Source: Candidatus Bathyarchaeota archaeon (GTDB taxonomy: Archaea > Thermoproteota > Bathyarchaeia > Bathyarchaeales > Bathycorpusculaceae). Taken from it: a stretch of DNA of 64,000 bases. The first letter of the stretch is position 1; each line of letters begins with the position of its first letter. Under the pieces are notes generated by a model. That model saw nothing but the letters and a program-made list of their open reading frames with translations. It was not told the origin of the DNA and did not search any database. This document shows positions 1 through 5,825 of the stretch, piece after piece. A program made the translations under genes and the position numbers. The stretch lies in contig CAWABA010000009.1 of NCBI GenBank assembly GCA_963780185.1, positions 32,001 to 96,000 on the forward strand, written 5' to 3'.

Positions 1-658
1 GTTCTCTCCACTTCAAAACGGCGCTATCCTCGGAACTGCCACTTAACTTAACAAATGTTTTATGATTCACTTTGACAAGATCTGATAATCTCAATATACT
101 TTCGAGAGTTTTATTATGCTTCCCAAATGATGTAAAACTAAGATCATACGCAATTTTTCCGCTTTTTTGCTTGACTAGGCCAGCCAATAGCAAAGTTGCT
201 TCATTTGATCTATCCAGAATCAAAAGATCAGTTTTTTCTGCGAGCGCTCTTGTTCTATTTGAGACGTCATTGCTTGAAATTTGATATTCTCTATCAAAAT
301 TACTCTTGCATCTTGGGCAATGCATTTCGAATTTATGACTACCGTTCGGAAAGATAAGATGTGCGAATTGTCGCGTAAATCTGAGATCCTTTTGATTGCC
401 TCTTTCGACAAGATTATCGTAATTTACACTGAATAATCTAAAATCCTCTTTTACGATTCTTTCTCCTAAATCATTTCCAATCAAACTGAAGACGAATGGT
501 TTGTTTCCAAGCAATGACATTAAACAGAGAGTATTTGCAACAGTTCCTCCTCCCGCACTACCGAGATATGTAAGATCAGATTGGGTTTCTTTAAGGGTTG
601 ACGATAAGAAGATGTGATCGACGGCGACTAACCCTGACCCCAGAACTATTTTAGCCAT
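1..658 (-). CDS. PfkB/ribokinase-family sugar or nucleoside kinase with H-x4-HCPRC insert, truncated by window edge
   Basis: Hand translation from ATG at 658, open to the edge: MAKIVLGSGLVAVDHIF...YLGSAGGGTVANTLCLMSLLG...SLIGNDLGERIVKEDF...HKFEMHCPRCK...AYDLS...SDLVKVN. The GG-xx-AN, IGND and D-lvk-N motifs are PfkB signatures. Start overlaps the upstream stop (TAATG). Confidence 0.85.
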   Translation of the reverse strand, partial: MAKIVLGSGLVAVDHIFLSSTLKETQSDLTYLGSAGGGTVANTLCLMSLLGNKPFVFSLIGNDLGERIVKEDFRLFSVNYDNLVERGNQKDLRFTRQFAHLIFPNGSHKFEMHCPRCKSNFDREYQISSNDVSNRTRALAEKTDLLILDRSNEATLLLAGLVKQKSGKIAYDLSFTSFGKHNKTLESILRLSDLVKVNHKTFVKLSGSSEDSAVLKWRE

Positions 659-1557
659 TAAGTGCACTTCCGAAGGACCATAATCCCTTGCGTTCCCACA
701 TTTGAATTTATAGGTATTTCGTTTTTTGGAGTTAGGAAATGCGAGCCTGTTAAGGCGCCTGCTATTACCGTAGTCAAGAAACCATTTGTACTTCCTCCAG
801 GCGTCAAGACTGGGCGACTTATTGATACACTAGGACTGGGAATGGCTTTTAGAGTCCTGTAAAGCTGATCAAACGCTTGATCCGGACACAAGGAGTCCAG
901 GTAAATGATATTTCTCGTTCTGGTTCTGTACTTTTCCAGCATTTGATAATGATTTGTTAAAGTGCGCTCTCCCCATTGAATGGAGCGGTTTGGAAATTCC
1001 AAAAGGGGAAACACATCGTAAGGATCCAAGTTTTCAGCTGCTTGTTCAAGGGCAGTTCGGTCGCGTAATAGCGCGGGGTACCACCATACGGGAACAGAAT
1101 TAGACGACTGAGCCACATAGGAAACGCCGAAAGGATCTGCATGCCATAATTCAAAAGGGGCGTCTTTTTGAGACACTTCCCCCTCAGGGATTACTATTCC
1201 CAATGCGATATTCTTTCCTTTCATTATATGGTCTTTCCAATTGATGATGATTGAAGCAATGCACTCAGTTGGGAGATTAGAAGGGTCAAACCAGTAGAGT
1301 ATAGGGCTTCCATCAAGATCATCGACTACCGAATCCAGAGCTTTAGAAGAGTTTTTCAGACAAACGCAAGCTATCTCAATACTTTTGCAGTTATATGGTA
1401 ACGGATTATATGTATTAGTTGGATTATCCAGATGTTTTGTTTGGTGCGGATTGATTATCAATTTGCCTTCGAGGGCTGACCTGTTAAAAGGGGGTGAATT
1501 GCACTCTAAGTAGTCCATTGTTATGATTACCTTGGGAGAGATGTTTCCAGCTTGCAT
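658..1557 (-). CDS. Uncharacterised alpha/beta protein, possibly tandem Rossmann/CARF-like, in PRTase-PfkB operon
   Basis: 299 aa ORF coupled to both neighbours. Strand-end motifs WFDPSNLP, WWYPALL, VFPLLEFP, NIIYLDSLCP, VLTPGGS. Fold call is inference. Confidence 0.6.
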   Translation of the reverse strand: MQAGNISPKVIITMDYLECNSPPFNRSALEGKLIINPHQTKHLDNPTNTYNPLPYNCKSIEIACVCLKNSSKALDSVVDDLDGSPILYWFDPSNLPTECIASIIINWKDHIMKGKNIALGIVIPEGEVSQKDAPFELWHADPFGVSYVAQSSNSVPVWWYPALLRDRTALEQAAENLDPYDVFPLLEFPNRSIQWGERTLTNHYQMLEKYRTRTRNIIYLDSLCPDQAFDQLYRTLKAIPSPSVSISRPVLTPGGSTNGFLTTVIAGALTGSHFLTPKNEIPINSNVGTQGIMVLRKCT

Positions 1558-1561
1558 TCAA

Positions 1562-2632
1562 TTACCTCGCAGGAGTGTGGTGCACCACTCTCGGGAAGAG
1601 AGGATACCAGTCATTTTCATGCCATAATAAGTACAAAGAATCATTTGGACAATTTGATTGAAGAATTAACGTCAAACCGGCACTCCCGTATCCATATTTA
1701 GCGCCCCCGCCAACTCTTGTGTGTTCATCTTCCTTAAATCTGTCGTAGTACTTATCACATAATTTTGCTACTGATTTGTTGACGTCAATTCCTGTTCCAT
1801 CTGCATTAGAAATACAAAAAGAGATTGGCAACCAACATGTAGGGTATATTTTTACAAAAGGAACTGAGCACTCGCTTAGATATTTTGGTAGTCTGTTATC
1901 AAGATTTTTCTCTGAAACTGAAGTTTGGATGAATGGGCAGTAGTAAATTTTGTCTTCTTTTATGAAATCCTTCCAAAGACCTTGAAAACGAGGAATTTTT
2001 CCCGTCCATACTCCATTCTTATTCCGTAACGCTGTGTCTCCGCTTGCTGATATTTGGTCAATCAAAAAGATGTTTTTGTGAGGAGGTAGCTCTTTCATAG
2101 AGGTTTTGTCTCGTTTATAATATTCAACGAAATTCTCTTTACTGAATGAATGATATCTCATCGCGTAACGGCGAAAGAAATCAAAGTGCATATCATCAGC
2201 GCAAGCAACGAAAATACTTCTTCTCAATTCTGCATCTAAATTCAAGCTCCGGGTGGCCATGTAATCATTCCAATTATTGATTGAGGCATTTACGGAGTTT
2301 TGTAAAATGCAATACCGCGCGTTTTCAAAGGTTCTGATAGCTAATTGCTTCATTTCATACGTACTAATAAATTTGAGAGACTTCACTATTTCCATTGCTG
2401 CCTGTCTGTCTTCCTTGTCGAAATTATCAAGCCATTTAAGAAGTCTGCTTTCAAATGTTTCCCCTGGAAATGAATGATCATATCTGTCATACTTTCTACG
2501 ACTCAAAAAGAGTATTCTTGCTGTTTCGTCTGCAGAAATATCTACCCCTAAATAGGTTAAAGCTAGCCGCAATTGCTCTGTCTGGCTCTCAAAAGAACTA
2601 AAGGTATATGGGCGATATTCTGTAATAGTCAA
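1562..2632 (-). CDS. Divergent phosphoribosyltransferase-like protein (conflict-associated type)
   Basis: PRPP-loop-like IFLIDQISASGDT; C-terminal YGYGSAGLTLILQSNCPNDSLYLLW...WYPLFPR; N-terminal KYDRY...PGETFESRLLKWLDNF. Confidence 0.7.
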   Translation of the reverse strand: MTITEYRPYTFSSFESQTEQLRLALTYLGVDISADETARILFLSRRKYDRYDHSFPGETFESRLLKWLDNFDKEDRQAAMEIVKSLKFISTYEMKQLAIRTFENARYCILQNSVNASINNWNDYMATRSLNLDAELRRSIFVACADDMHFDFFRRYAMRYHSFSKENFVEYYKRDKTSMKELPPHKNIFLIDQISASGDTALRNKNGVWTGKIPRFQGLWKDFIKEDKIYYCPFIQTSVSEKNLDNRLPKYLSECSVPFVKIYPTCWLPISFCISNADGTGIDVNKSVAKLCDKYYDRFKEDEHTRVGGGAKYGYGSAGLTLILQSNCPNDSLYLLWHENDWYPLFPRVVHHTPAR

Positions 2633-3065
2633 CTACCTTGGACGAGATATGGATGGTTTTTGCTTATATGTTTAATTAATCTTCCTCAATTCTCAACCAA
2701 GCCTACTCTATTAAACATCTTGCAAGTCGCAGTTTTTCAGCCCATCCCAAAGGTTTCAACCCGCAAAAATGTTCAAGCTCTATCCAAGGAAGCACCCTAA
2801 AACGCAAGATCTACTTGCGAAGCTGCAATTTTGCGTTGCTTTTCTGGAAAAGGTTGTCGAACATGCGCATGCGGGCTTAATCAAATTGATTGAAGATCGG
2901 GTACCTGTCGTTGCCGGTCGGTTACTTGAATTGAGATTGATGCTCCGCCTGAGATGTCTTTTTGCTTTACTTTATATTGTTTCACTAACAGCGAAAATGG
3001 GCGCGTGTCAGAAAAATAAGCCATTAGTAATTTGCGCTGTAAGTGTTTGGTTCCTCAAAGCCAGT

Positions 3066-3350
3066 CGCCCATAACTGACAATGTCATCGCTGAATTTCAA
3101 CATGGTATTGTCGCAGAAAGTCGCATCCGCCCATCCCGCAACATAGAACACGACCAGACACGACCAGACCTACAAGCGGATTGGGCTCGTTTTCAAAAAA
3201 GCAACTTGAAACGCAACAGGAAAAAGTCTCAACTTTCCCCAAAACAAAAGTCGCAACGAAAAAGTTAACTTCCGCAAAAACCAGCAGAACCAACCCAAAC
3301 CGCAGCAACCAAAAAAAACCGAAACCGCAAGAATGCAACACCAATTTTTT
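3066..3350. repeat. Dispersed intergenic repeat family A, copy 1
   Basis: Shares CCGCCCATCCCGCAACATAGAACACGACCAGAC and AAAAAAGCAACTTGAAACGCAA-AAAAAGTCTCAACTT blocks with 32895-33135. Confidence 0.85.
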
Positions 3351-3422
3351 TTGGTTCTCCGAAACCCATAAATGGGGAGAGCTGAAGTATAGAAGAGATA
3401 ACGGAATCATGAGGATTACACC

Positions 3423-3650
3423 ATGAGCGAAATGACAACCGAAATCCTTGAACAAAACCTCAGTAAAGTCGTACTTGTACGGCTTAAAGGCGGAAAAAGC
3501 CTCCGGGGAAGACTAAAGGGTTTCGACCAACACTTAAACCTCGTCCTAGAAGAAACAGAAGACACAACCCAAGTTGAAAACCAAAAGAAACTGGGACTAA
3601 TAATCGTCCGCGGAGACAACGTAGTCCTAATATCACCACCGCCTAGGTGA
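3423..3650 (+). CDS. Sm-like archaeal protein (SmAP/LSm)
   Basis: Sm1 motif [14 protein letters not shown], Sm2 motif [11 protein letters not shown]; conserved linkage to L37e. Confidence 0.95.
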
Positions 3651-3655
3651 CCACG

Positions 3656-3844
3656 ATGGGAAAAGGAACTCCATCAATGGGCAAGCGCCAAGGCAAAACC
3701 GTCCACATAAAATGCCGACGCTGCGGAAGACGAGCATACCACGTACGGCACAAACGTTGCGCGGCATGCGGCTTCGGCGAAACCACAAAGATGCGGCATT
3801 ACACCTGGATGCGCAAGACTCTTCAAAGAGTAAGAGTCGTCTAA
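3656..3844 (+). CDS. rpl37e: 50S ribosomal protein L37e
   Basis: [11 protein letters not shown]...[13 protein letters not shown]...CAACGFG. Confidence 0.95.
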
Positions 3845-4702: not shown

Positions 4703-5359
4703 TCATCCGATGAAGTTTGGAAGCGCCGTAACATCGTTTAAAATCAAGTCTGGCTCTTCTTTAGCAAGTTCACTCGATTGATAGAGCCCCGATAAAACGG
4801 CAACAGTACGTGCTCCAGCAGCTTTTCCAGCCCGCACATCATTAACCGAATCACCAGCGATGACGCAGTCGCTTATATCAACATCCAACGTTCTAACACA
4901 GTCCAAGAGCGCTTCAGGTGAAGGTTTAGGCTTAGTCGTGTCCAGAGCCGTTACTACGTAGCTAAAATATCTTGATATTCCAAAGAACTCAAGCTCTTTT
5001 CTGATGGACTGCTTCGGCACATACCGCATGGTTATGAGGGCAAGTTTCCTTTTTTCCGCCAACGCTTCAAGCGCGGCTTTAACATCCGGCATTAGCCTAG
5101 TTTTGTGCCGGGTAACTGCATAGAAGGTTTTCAAGTATGTGCTCAGGAACCTTTTGGTTTCACCGTATGTGATGTCATCTATCGGGAAACCCTGCTCAAG
5201 TCTCCGAGGGATTTCCAAAGCCGTTTCATCTGCTGCTGGCATTTGACCGATGGCTCGGAACGACACCCTTGCCGCTTCCAAGTAGGCTTCAGTAGAGTCA
5301 ACTATGGTGCCGTCCAAATCCAAGAAAATAGCTTTTGCTTTGAAGCCGTTGTCGAGCAT
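4703..5359 (-). CDS. HAD-family hydrolase (phosphoglycolate phosphatase-like)
   Basis: Motif I DLDGT, KPKPSP, GDSVNDVRAGKAAG. Confidence 0.9.
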   Translation of the reverse strand: MLDNGFKAKAIFLDLDGTIVDSTEAYLEAARVSFRAIGQMPAADETALEIPRRLEQGFPIDDITYGETKRFLSTYLKTFYAVTRHKTRLMPDVKAALEALAEKRKLALITMRYVPKQSIRKELEFFGISRYFSYVVTALDTTKPKPSPEALLDCVRTLDVDISDCVIAGDSVNDVRAGKAAGARTVAVLSGLYQSSELAKEEPDLILNDVTALPNFIG

Positions 5360-5825
5360 TTCTCTCGGCTCTTCACTGTGCACTTTATTTCTTAAAGGTT
5401 TCTTATGTTCCGCCAAGAAACAACGTCTCGGCACCAATTCTGAAACGGGGGCTATTCTGAAGATGACGTTTTGGTCGAAGACATTTCCTTCAAAAAGAAT
5501 TTCCGCTAATCCGTTTAGGAGGAGTTTTGGGTTCGTGTTTCTTTTCCGCGGATGAATGACAGTATCCCACTAGCACCAATATGGCTTATGGAGGCGTAGA
5601 AGGAGTTGTCTACTTCTTTTTCTTAATTGTTGGTCGAAGGTTAATTTATCAATACGCCGCATAGGAGATTCAGGTTTTAGAGGCAGAATCAGTTTTCGAA
5701 GAGAGAGCATCGGGCTCTGACCGATACATCGCGTCTGATGGTTAATGTTTGGAAAGGGTCCAGATAACTAATTATAATTCGCAGAACCTAATTTGAAGAC
5801 AAACCTGCTCCAGCTGTGTTTCCAA

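Follow-up and report, generated by a model that had tools for sequence, protein, structure and literature searches.

The left edge of the 64,000-nucleotide stretch of Candidatus Bathyarchaeota DNA analysed here (the window) carries a compact archaeal version of a mobile system built from five domains, which combines a PRTase-CE phosphoribosyltransferase (PRTase), a CARF6-family protein, a PfkB kinase, a double-SIS domain and a HAD phosphatase, with an ORC-CDC6-like ATPase added in some relatives. The cassette is rare, horizontally spread and accessory, and it looks like a nucleotide-targeting defence system. We give roughly even chances to the reading that it is a CRISPR-independent conflict system directed at nucleotides or PRPP, in which the kinase-isomerase-phosphatase trio makes or removes the ligand of the CARF6 protein. 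To our knowledge, CARF sensors are known almost solely as receivers of the cyclic oligoadenylates of type III CRISPR systems. In this cassette, a protein of the CARF family is tied to three sugar-phosphate enzymes and to a PRTase that would target nucleotides, and no cyclase was found in the host genome. If the cassette is a defence system, it would connect phosphosugar chemistry with immune signalling or with effector action and add PRPP-level attack to the antiviral strategies of archaea. It would also provide a function for a set of genes that are mostly named 'hypothetical' across archaea and rhizobial plasmids.

The features of the locus are listed in Table 1. The initial annotation described three co-oriented genes, separated by 4 bp at one junction and overlapping as TAATG at the other, and this layout is borne out by the minus-strand ORFs and by direct reading of the junctions: 'AGG TAA ttga ATG' between genes 1 and 2, and 'ACT TAATG GCT', where the gene 2 stop overlaps an ATG, between genes 2 and 3. 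This ATG, at position 658, is taken as the start of gene 3 instead of the GTG at 667 in the ORF list, because the N-termini of homologs fit the ATG. The operon was expected to run past the window edge, and leftward extension of the contig indeed completes gene 3 and then reaches the HAD gene. It was also described as AT-rich. The 4.2-kb cassette has a GC content of 39.8%, compared with 46.6 +/- 3.0% in 5403 genome-wide windows of 4.2 kb (z = -2.2; lowest 2%); the values for genes 1, 2 and 3 are 38.1%, 43.0% and 39.4%, so that the AT-richness of gene 2 by itself is mild. Within the window, the cassette borders on LSm, L37e and RPA-like genes. An Rfam scan of the window at gathering thresholds returned two tRNAs and nothing more.

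Table 1. Coordinates and predicted products of the cassette genes.
Feature	Position	Strand	Product and remarks
Gene 1	1562-2632	-	356 aa; predicted PRTase-CE family phosphoribosyltransferase-like protein
Gene 2	658-1557	-	299 aa; predicted divergent, shortened CARF6-family protein; no Pfam domain
Gene 3, part in window	1-658 (ORF 2-667, open at window edge)	-	N-terminal 219 residues only
Gene 3, entire	G000:C9:30439-32658/32667		739 aa from ATG, 742 aa from GTG; from contig extension
HAD phosphatase gene	4 bp beyond gene 3 stop, outside window	opposite to gene 3	

On the basis of its sequence, the gene 1 product is classified as a divergent PRTase of the conflict-effector family to which the effectors of type III-A retrons belong. 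It matches the Pfam family PF24390 (PRTase-CE, "conflict effector") with 95.7 bits (cut-off 27; E = 5.2e-27) from residue 66 to 348, covering model positions 3-253 of 253, and the PADLOC PRTase_III-A models at 9.8e-20, 1.2e-16 and 1.5e-13. The earlier identification as a divergent PRTase of conflict loci is upheld by these matches, and the two motifs highlighted at that stage, LIDQISASGDT and GYG...NCPND-S...W-PLFPR, are both present in the translation. The first falls within a type I PRTase PRPP loop, F189-L-I-D-Q-I-S-A-S197-G198-D-T-A-L-R203; the sequence I-F-L-I-D-Q-I-S-A-S-G-D-T supplies the hydrophobic strand, the acidic residue and the S/T-G-x-T expected of such a loop. Among 32 cassette-linked sequences, F189, L190, S197, G198 and R203 of this loop are conserved in at least 90%, and D192 and T200 in at least 70%. 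The C-terminal tail reads G-x14-P329-N330 ... W337 ... F346-x-R348 ... H352. Retron-type PRTase effectors are reported to share the signature Gx14PNNxP (PMC12746101); the third N and the last P differ in the window protein (G-x14-P-N-D-S-L). The loop and the retron-type G-x14-PN tail are kept across the 32 sequences, and the G, the spacing and P329-N330 are invariant in a 21-sequence alignment (A5). A search of 1.84 billion proteins yielded 435 representative homologs at E<=1e-3. The sole similarity in the PDB is to the PRPP loop of the guanine PRTase 1dqn, which is non-significant (E 0.4), and the NCBIfam model NF053875 (DS32_1 anti-phage PRTase-like) stays at 19.7 bits, below its cut-off of 250, with only the last 28 residues aligned.

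Gene 2, as judged by profile comparison, encodes a divergent and shortened CARF6 member. The protein matches the PADLOC CARF6 models PDLC01910 (2.6e-9, residues 143-236) and PDLC01916 (8.3e-5), the match being limited to 95 of 348 model positions (181-275), and its hhalign comparison with a canonical member is weak (E 1.5e-3, probability 17%). Its relatives in other cassettes match CARF6 at full length: L057 at 1e-114, L035, L036 and L044 at about 1e-34, and L005 and L046 at about 1e-29. The initial proposal of a CARF-related partner is therefore sustained. Gene 2 has no match in a PDB profile search and only 20 homologs among 5.8 billion proteins, and in 15 of 15 loci it is the most divergent component by identity to the window proteins. 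Residues W89, D91-P92, E98-C99, W159-Y-P161, P179-Y-D181, R211-x-R213-T-R215 and T252-P-G-G255 are invariant in its subfamily. The CARF superfamily carries the strand-4 signature [DN]x[ST]xxx[RK], at which canonical cassette members have D-[IV]-S-x-[LMFI]-P-R; in the same alignment (A3), the window-type subfamily lacks the basic residue (D91-P-S-N-L-P-T). It also lacks the N-terminal part of canonical CARF6. Due to the replacement of the basic residue, gene 2 may no longer bind a ligand in CARF fashion. Fusions of gene 2 to the PRTase occur in P0091, P0093, L003 (636 aa) and L025 (625 aa), which implies that the products of genes 1 and 2 are physically coupled.

Gene 3 was initially recognised as a PfkB kinase. 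A PfkB domain is present, but the entire protein is not a kinase alone: it is a fusion of PfkB to a double-SIS domain. The N-terminal half (about residues 15-315, with two CxxC pairs; Pfam PfkB 2.1e-13) has PDB profile matches to the sugar kinase MJ0406 (3.5e-13), ketohexokinases (about 1e-11) and fructokinase, and its Gly-Gly substrate motif and G-x-G-D catalytic/anion-hole motif are invariant in 19 sequences (G39-G-G41, D264, G267, G269-D270). The C-terminal half is of the GlmS/NagB-II type (about 400-735; Pfam SIS 5.3e-7), with matches to 3hba and 8eol (query 404-601), 2aml (392-634) and 1j5x. It contains a phosphate-binding loop, matches across two SIS repeats, and has the invariant motifs G436-S-G438-x-S440 and E619...H640-G-R-Y643; particular catalytic residues are presumably assignable by analogy with GlmS. 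JGI names for relatives of gene 3 read 'sugar/nucleoside kinase / fructoselysine-6-P-deglycase FrlB-like'. A HAD gene adjoins the cassette in 32 of the 41 loci with sufficient flank, and at least two different HAD families are represented. The earlier remark that no salvage genes accompany the operon is therefore not quite accurate. In the PADLOC check proposed with it, models match genes 1 and 2; gene 3 matches no defence model in the PADLOC scan, and no system call is implied.

The cassette is conserved as one block at 57 more loci, which come from several lineages of archaea. Co-occurrence was counted over 49 non-duplicate loci, 27 of which extend for 2300 nt or more upstream of gene 3. Of these 27, 26 contain the PRTase and 20 contain gene 2 at E<=1e-3, with four more gene 2 matches from a relaxed search (E 5.5e-5 to 2.7e-3). 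From locus to locus, identities to the window proteins drop together (rho 0.94, n=26; rho 0.95, n=14). A sample of 401 genomes from the phylum has gene 2 once, and none of ten other genomes of the genus has it; CARF6 is found in three of the 401 and in none of 14 control genomes. These counts for the PRTase and gene 2 agree with the initial expectation of a triad that co-occurs without being vertically conserved.

Taxa with the cassette include Bathyarchaeota, Loki- and Helarchaeota (Asgard), Syntrophoarchaeum and Thermoplasmata, and it is also present on rhizobial plasmids. A shuffled five-domain form, with a SIS-HAD fusion and a stand-alone PfkB, occurs in loci L057, L058 and L066 and on Agrobacterium tumefaciens pQ15_94_4; with the added ORC-CDC6-like ATPase, the shuffled form is found in 20 bacterial plasmid records, nine of them conjugative. 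Transposase and recombinase genes adjoin some cassettes. Two IMG/VR contigs carry cassette relatives, and a search of 50,697 phage genomes gave no match. The flanks are mixed and form no consistent defence island among 142 flanking ORFs: they include housekeeping genes (AdoMet synthetase, NrdD, PGK, SRP54, gyrase B, tRNA enzymes), with defence and mobile genes only scattered.

Known sources of CARF ligands were searched for in the host genome, which is 93.5% complete. For CD-NTases, the SMODS model reached 18.4 bits, below its cut-off of 26.5; for Cas10, TIGR02577 gave no match and TIGR02578 scored 16.4 bits against a cut-off of 170. Any ligand must therefore come from elsewhere, although at this completeness the absence of a cyclase is not proven. 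The single CRISPR array found is on a different contig, beside Cas1 and Csa1.

The gene content, family membership, conserved catalytic and binding motifs, co-inheritance, gene fusions, sporadic distribution and plasmid carriage of the cassette are all observed in the sequence data; we infer its defence role and every biochemical step outlined here. The CARF6-like protein would bind the PRTase and keep it under ligand control. The PfkB-SIS protein and the neighbouring HAD would together supply a short route of kinase, isomerase and phosphatase steps and thereby make or remove the molecule sensed by the CARF6 protein, a small phosphorylated compound of sugar or nucleoside type. They would take the role that Cas10 or CD-NTase cyclases play for other CARF sensors. 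Once activated, the PRTase would consume PRPP, attack nucleotides at the glycosidic bond, or do both; the supply of nucleotides would collapse, and viral replication would halt through abortive infection or growth arrest. In a more specific version, the PfkB, double-SIS and HAD enzymes constitute a new immune second-messenger pathway that converts a sugar or nucleoside, possibly virus- or damage-derived, into a phosphorylated molecule, which the CARF-family protein reads to unleash a PRPP- or nucleotide-destroying PRTase. We regard this version as rather unlikely; if true, it would be the first CARF signalling route without a Cas10 or CD-NTase cyclase. The trio may instead act as a co-effector, as an antitoxin or in plain metabolism.

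A kinase, an isomerase, a phosphatase and a PRTase are equally the content of a small biosynthetic or salvage pathway. The cassette could make a nucleoside-like molecule (an antimetabolite, signal or cofactor), a reading that we consider unlikely yet the most serious rival. PfkB and SIS would prepare an unusual sugar phosphate, the PRTase would join this or PRPP to a base, and the HAD would free the nucleoside by dephosphorylation; the CARF6-like protein would sense the product as a regulator or serve as an additional subunit of an enzyme, and the pathway would yield a novel nucleoside-like metabolite. These enzymes form a complete, logical pathway with all catalytic motifs conserved, and the nearest relatives are ketohexokinase, fructokinase and nucleoside/sugar kinase for the PfkB half and amino-sugar-phosphate isomerases/deaminases for the SIS half. 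There are chemical precedents in FrlD/FrlB, a PfkB kinase with a SIS deglycase, and in the angustmycin pathway, where a PRTase homolog and a phosphatase act on a ketohexose phosphate. In addition, Ter-linked PRTase and HAD pairs are proposed to make a nucleoside-like metabolite (PMC7824862), and a sporadic, plasmid-borne distribution also suits secondary metabolism. However, gene 1 falls in the effector-type PRTase-CE/retron clade and in no housekeeping PRTase family, with the non-significant 1dqn loop as its only structural match. No conserved pyrophosphokinase, transporter or tailoring enzyme lies alongside the cassette, and the ORC-CDC6-like ATPase and CARF-family protein of fuller versions typify conflict systems, not biosynthetic clusters. 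It is very improbable that the cassette is a routine operon for the catabolism or salvage of a sugar, ketosamine or nucleoside, retained only where organisms meet the substrate. PfkB, SIS and HAD are common in sugar-phosphate metabolism, the JGI names point the same way, and the window neighbours are housekeeping genes; against this, the invariant partners are a conflict-effector PRTase and a CARF6-family protein, there is no conserved transporter, regulator or downstream catabolic gene, and the cassette is low in GC, was found in one of the 401 phylum genomes, and travels with transposases and on conjugative plasmids.

The coupling of genes 1 and 2 also bears on a toxin-antitoxin-like module without a diffusible signal. 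By analogy with ShosT/ShosA, gene 2 would directly bind and restrain a PRTase toxin until it is lost or displaced, and PfkB-SIS and HAD would be co-toxins, or would repair or buffer the damage to metabolism. A complex is implied by the fusions of gene 1 to gene 2 and by their tight translational coupling, and the window-type gene 2 has lost both the CARF-like basic residue and the canonical N-terminal part. The pairing of a PRTase toxin with a Rossmann-like antitoxin has a reported precedent in ShosTA (PMC11961720), as does a HAD co-effector in PUA-Cal-HAD. We nevertheless judge this module improbable: at E<=1, the PADLOC matches of genes 1 and 2 include neither ShosT nor ShosA, three further strictly conserved enzyme domains with intact active-site motifs exceed the needs of a simple toxin-antitoxin pair, and covalent fusion (L003, L025) is awkward for an antitoxin that acts by release.

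Among known systems, the conflict system proposed here resembles at the effector level type III-A retrons such as Retron-Eco11, which have the same PRTase effector family, PRPP loop and G-x14-PN tail as gene 1. PMC13712802 uses the Pfam name PRTase-CE for partners of type III-A retrons, and for Retron-Eco11 PMC12746101 reports that such a PRTase is required for defence and that activation cuts PRPP by about 50%; the effector there acts by depleting PRPP. Type III-A retrons differ in having a reverse transcriptase and ncRNA/msDNA; gene 1 lacks the winged-helix tail, its partners are CARF6, PfkB-SIS and HAD, and no reverse transcriptase or retron ncRNA was found at the locus among surrounding ORFs, Pfam matches or the Rfam scan. 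The CARF effectors of type III CRISPR systems (Csm6/Csx1, CARF-adenosine deaminase and others) likewise couple, and sometimes fuse, a CARF protein to an enzyme that damages the nucleic-acid or nucleotide economy. Unlike them, the cassette brings its own sugar-phosphate enzymes, with no Cas10 or cOA source detected in the genome.

The PUA-Calcineurin-CE-HAD system is also a coupled cascade of a ligand sensor, a nucleotide-pool conflict effector and a dedicated HAD; its HAD phosphatase is reported as a co-effector in nucleotide-depletion immunity (preprint 10.64898/2026.01.15.699771). As described there, the sensor is PUA, the effector is a calcineurin-like phosphoesterase, no kinase or isomerase takes part, and the ligand arises from DNA breakdown and not from an enzyme that the system encodes. 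ShosTA resembles genes 1 and 2 in that a small partner protein reportedly accompanies a toxin of PRTase type, which disturbs purine metabolism (PMC11961720). It has no PfkB, SIS or HAD partners, unlike the cassette, and an assignment of genes 1 and 2 as ShosT/ShosA was rejected, with PADLOC at E<=1 giving solely PRTase_III-A for gene 1 and CARF6 for gene 2. FrlD/FrlB resembles gene 3 in that a double-SIS enzyme acts on the phosphorylated product of a PfkB kinase. FrlD/FrlB and the Ter-linked genes belong to metabolic or stress pathways with housekeeping-type enzymes, in contrast to the effector-clade PRTase and obligatory CARF6 partner of the cassette.

The operon on A. tumefaciens pQ15_94_4 (NZ_CP049221.1, G6M86_RS29080 to RS29060) encodes SIS-HAD, PRTase-CE, an ORC-CDC6-like ATPase, CARF6 and PfkB, in this order, as a single operon on mobile DNA. 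Three of its five genes are 'hypothetical protein' in RefSeq, and no experimental work on it was found in the literature searched. PRTase-CE is matched on the plasmid at 2e-17, the plasmid CARF6 relative matches L057 at 6e-52, and the gene 3 model finds the SIS domain in the L066, L057 and L058 proteins equivalent to the plasmid SIS-HAD. The window cassette differs in lacking the ORC-CDC6-like ATPase, in having PfkB and not HAD fused to SIS, in placing HAD on the opposite strand, and in its shortened, motif-altered CARF6. All five domains are common to both. The initial description of the operon as undescribed is doubtful: Pfam and PADLOC already contain its component families, and the same set of domains makes up an operon on plasmids of bacteria.

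The cassette at the left edge of the window belongs to a gene set that travels as a unit among distant archaea and on bacterial plasmids. Its invariant members are a PRTase of the effector type, a protein of the CARF6 family, and three enzymes acting on sugar or nucleoside phosphates; an AAA+ type ATPase is optional. The layout described in the initial annotation was borne out. A 4-bp gap (TAA ttga ATG) lies between genes 1 and 2, the gene 2 stop overlaps the gene 3 ATG as TAATG, and leftward extension recovered the complete gene 3 and then a HAD gene beyond the window edge. For gene 3, the ATG start rather than the upstream GTG agrees with homologs. The noted AT-richness was also recovered: the 4.2-kb cassette has 39.8% GC versus 46.6 +/- 3.0% for the genome, within the lowest 2% of 5403 windows. 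The neighbouring genes on both sides show the host to be an archaeon and place the cassette amid ordinary genes.

Coordinates of the cassette, its surroundings, and features of related loci (window, G000:C9:32001-96000; L001, window locus with left flank; other L numbers, fetched loci)
Feature	Position	Strand	Length	Details
Gene 1 (PRTase-CE)	window 1562-2632	-	356 aa	
Gene 2 (CARF6-like)	window 658-1557	-	299 aa	
Gene 3 (PfkB-SIS)	start at window 658, extends past window edge	-	739 aa from ATG, 742 aa from upstream GTG	left flank fetched
HAD-family gene	4 bp past gene 3 stop	opposite to gene 3		left-flank ORFs and Pfam
Right-hand neighbours				LSm, ribosomal protein L37e, second HAD_2 protein, RPA-like OB-fold proteins
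Left-hand neighbours				zinc-ribbon protein, PUA protein, PIN protein
Gene 1 start to LSm gene	window 2633-3422		~790 nt	only short overlapping ORFs
Strongly A-rich stretch	around window 3000-3750	+		AT skew 0.33-0.44
Two terminator-like hairpins	window 3219-3289	-		
Second HAD_2-family phosphatase	window 4703-5437	-	244 aa	5.2e-27; 2 kb right of cassette
Two long ORFs	L001:11524-12300			
Pvc16_N-domain protein	L001:12606-13466	+		1.2e-24
PIN-domain protein	L001:13624-14022	-		
Radical-SAM protein	L003:9750-11276			HMPTM-type zinc ribbon
Split PfkB-SIS gene	L004:8001-10168			
CRISPR array	G000:C13:3045-4693			locus L062
930-aa protein	L068:14438-17230	-	930 aa	no Pfam match
DUF1612 + HTH_13 protein	L068:5707-6855	+		'RHE_PE00001 family'

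The interval between gene 1 and the LSm gene gave no match in Rfam, and its hairpins show no excess over shuffled sequence; the cassette promoter or an unannotated RNA could lie there. To the left, the Pvc16_N-domain protein, a contractile-injection-system/phage-tail-like component, is encoded by a lone gene, which together with the PIN gene occupies G000:C9:26606-28022, ~3-5 kb from the cassette. The two long ORFs on this side have odd Pro/Arg/Ser-rich translations and are alone in their region; a structured RNA gene overlain by spurious reading frames would look like this. A read-run search with sampled words retrieved no RNA run and only two DNA runs, at 0.07-0.09 of words.

A neighbourhood survey showed that these genes are conserved as a unit. 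The PfkB-SIS family is small, with 64 matches, and 5 loci from named genomes and 52 from metagenomes were fetched and mapped using HMMs from our own alignments and three HAD queries. Removal of 8 near-identical duplicates left 49 loci, including 27 with 2300 nt or more of upstream sequence before gene 3. A PRTase is present in 26 of these 27, the exception (L059) being a distant SIS-only match. Gene 2 was detected at E<=1e-3 in 20 of the 27, and a relaxed search added L005, L003, L046, and L047 (5.5e-5 to 2.7e-3); the L049 match was not significant (0.34). CARF6 was matched at 1.2e-28 in two of 142 scanned ORFs, a set to which the ORFs in the equivalent place of L049 and L050 belonged, with the matching members left unspecified. 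The HAD gene adjoins in 32 of the 41 loci whose flanks were long enough; none was detected in the other nine. At least two HAD families are represented in the cassettes, HAD_2 and Hydrolase_3/S6PP, which argues that phosphatase activity, rather than one particular gene, is what is retained. Identities to the window proteins drop in parallel for genes 1 and 3 (rho 0.94, n=26) and for genes 2 and 3 (rho 0.95, n=14), correlations that are descriptive only as the loci are related. The most divergent cassette member was gene 2 in all 15 loci compared.

Five architectures can be distinguished. Type A, that of the window, has the order PRTase, short CARF6-like protein, PfkB-SIS, and HAD. In type A' (P0091, P0093, L003, L025), the PRTase and CARF6-like domain form a single protein of 625-636 aa, to which gene 2 is related by pairwise E-values of 3e-5 (P0091) and 2e-3 (P0093) and by an hhalign comparison of its subfamily alignment with P0091 (1.7e-4). 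A search for fused gene 2 forms among proteins of 696-2000 aa, a range above the known fusions, found none, a weakly informative result. Type B (L035-L044, three of them tested) retains the type A order with a full-length CARF6. Type C, termed the Loki type (L005, L046, L047, L049, L050), combines a PRTase, an ORC-CDC6-like ATPase (PF24389 at 3.2e-37 in L005), and CARF6, with transcription divergent from that of PfkB-SIS and HAD. Type D consists of a SIS-HAD fusion, PRTase, ATPase, CARF6, and stand-alone PfkB, and occurs in L057, L058, the IMG/VR contig L066, and bacterial plasmids; of the further locus L067, just the SIS-HAD fusion and the PRTase could be resolved. The middle protein of type D is an ORC-CDC6-like ATPase in L057 and the Agrobacterium plasmid, and its putative counterpart, the protein placed there in L066, has 640 aa. 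In the fusion-type locus L003, the end of PfkB-SIS is overlapped by the radical-SAM gene, and there is a DDE_3 transposase 3 kb upstream.

Gene 3 had been annotated as a PfkB kinase, an assignment that stands for its N-terminal half (Pfam 2.1e-13); the C-terminal half is instead a double-SIS domain, making the protein a fusion. The nearest PDB profiles are the MJ0406 kinase, ketohexokinases, and fructokinases for the former half and phosphosugar isomerases and glucosamine-6-phosphate deaminase/GlmS-type proteins for the latter. Invariant across 19 gene 3 sequences are the GG and GxGD motifs of the kinase half, the GSGxS loop of the SIS half, and four cysteines arranged as two CxxC pairs. Gene 3 matched no PADLOC model, and no PfkB-SIS was found in viral contigs. 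Frame changes break the PfkB-SIS gene into two or three ORFs in L004, L006, L023, L039, and L045; these could be assembly sequencing errors or decaying copies.

Gene 1 is a member of the Pfam family PF24390 'PRTase-CE' (5.2e-27, 95.7 bits against a cut-off of 27), in which 'CE' denotes 'conflict effector' according to a preprint (10.64898/2026.01.15.699771). Among PADLOC models, gene 1 also matches those named 'PRTase_III-A' (best 9.8e-20, others weaker). A role as a CRISPR III-A accessory was ruled out for these models, as their name refers to a type III-A retron effector in PMC13712802 and PMC7736814. The PRPP loop and a C-terminal G-x14-PN...W...LF-R...H tail are kept in 32 cassette-linked sequences, as well as in a 21-sequence alignment. 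This tail partly matches Gx14PNNxP, the signature of retron PRTases described for Retron-Eco11, in which PRPP falls by about half on PRTase activation (PMC12746101): the G, the spacing, and the PN agree, whereas the window protein does not retain the third N and the last P. Against the NCBIfam anti-phage PRTase model DS32_1, gene 1 scored 19.7 bits, far below the cut-off of 250, and its sole match in a PDB profile search was the PRPP loop at E 0.4. A search of 50,697 phage genomes did not find the PRTase.

The probable CARF6 assignment of gene 2 is carried more by its relatives than by the window protein itself. No domain was detected by Pfam, only 20 homologs were found in 5.8 billion proteins, and the PADLOC CARF6 model PDLC01910 matches at 2.6e-9, but over just ~95 of 348 positions. 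Stronger evidence comes from divergent cassette relatives that are full-length CARF6 proteins, namely those of L057 (1e-114), of L035, L036, and L044 (about 1e-34), and of the Loki-type L005 and L046 (about 1e-29). Canonical cassette members carry D-x-S-x-L-P-R behind a hydrophobic strand, a motif that resembles the CARF strand-4 signature. The window subfamily has D91-P-S-N-L-P-T at this motif, is without the canonical N-terminal segment, and displays its own invariant motifs, R211-x-R-T-R215 and T-P-G-G. A profile search of the wide gene 2 alignment against PDB gave only a chance antibody match (E 0.61), and none of nine pattern matches over the genome contigs was confirmed.

Gene 2 is sparsely distributed. 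It was found in one of 401 sampled genomes of the phylum, the window's own, and in none of 10 further members of the genus, whose genomes are each at least 90% complete; the CARF6 model is matched in three of the 401, including the window's own, and in none of 14 control genomes. Named carriers are a Bathyarchaeota MAG, an unclassified archaeon, a Loki-type Promethearchaeota MAG, Candidatus Syntrophoarchaeum, and a Thermoplasmata MAG, with a Helarchaeota protein as a further case. On plasmids, a PLSDB tblastn search with the L066 PRTase returned 20 records (six Rhizobium, three Agrobacterium, also Sinorhizobium, Rathayibacter, and others), classed as 9 conjugative, 1 mobilizable, and 10 non-mobilizable. 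The operon of A. tumefaciens pQ15_94_4 adjoins genes for a Mu-transposase, TniB, and a recombinase. Of its five genes, three carry the label 'hypothetical protein'. Its Pfam domains are HAD, PRTase-CE, ORC-CDC6-like, and PfkB, and its 369-aa gene encodes a CARF6 relative (6e-52 to L057). This operon is bracketed by the 930-aa and DUF1612 + HTH_13 proteins (L068 in the table). The 142 flanking ORFs scanned for signs of a defence island were a mixed set and, there being no baseline for comparison, were counted for neither side.

Potential signal sources were sought in the 93.5%-complete host genome. SMODS fell below cut-off (18.4 bits), as did Cas10 with TIGR02578 (16.4 bits), and TIGR02577 gave no match. 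The CRISPR array on contig C13, with ~22 copies of a 37-nt repeat, is flanked by Cas1 (9.2e-74) and Csa1 (3e-77).

The best reading of the cassette, to which we give about even credence, is a conflict system centred on nucleotides. Its PRTase would deplete PRPP, by analogy with Retron-Eco11. PRTase-CE domains have reportedly been predicted, by Nicastro et al. in 2023, to attack nucleotides at the glycosidic bond. The CARF6 protein, in some cases PRTase-fused, may gate the PRTase, and the kinase-isomerase-phosphatase trio would produce or remove the CARF6 ligand. Alternatively, the trio may serve as a co-effector, like the HAD in PUA-Cal-HAD (preprint 10.64898/2026.01.15.699771). We infer every mechanistic step of the conflict-system reading, and its weakest link is ligand binding by the window gene 2 protein because part of the canonical CARF6 features is lost.

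The enzyme set fits equally well with a small biosynthetic route yielding a nucleoside-like metabolite, for which Ter-linked PRTase and HAD genes provide a precedent (PMC7824862); we regard such a route as possible and rather unlikely. It is doubtful that the genes form a ShosTA-like toxin-antitoxin arrangement, which would involve no diffusible signal, and ordinary catabolism appears quite improbable.

Searches of the main texts of the available literature found no description of a cassette of PRTase, CARF, PfkB, SIS, and HAD and no experimental characterisation of it. The component families are already catalogued (Pfam PF24389 and PF24390, PADLOC CARF6). What we rate as new here is the ATPase-less archaeal form with a PfkB-SIS fusion and a trimmed CARF6. 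If the five-gene system is already laid out in the literature, the window form is a further member of that system.
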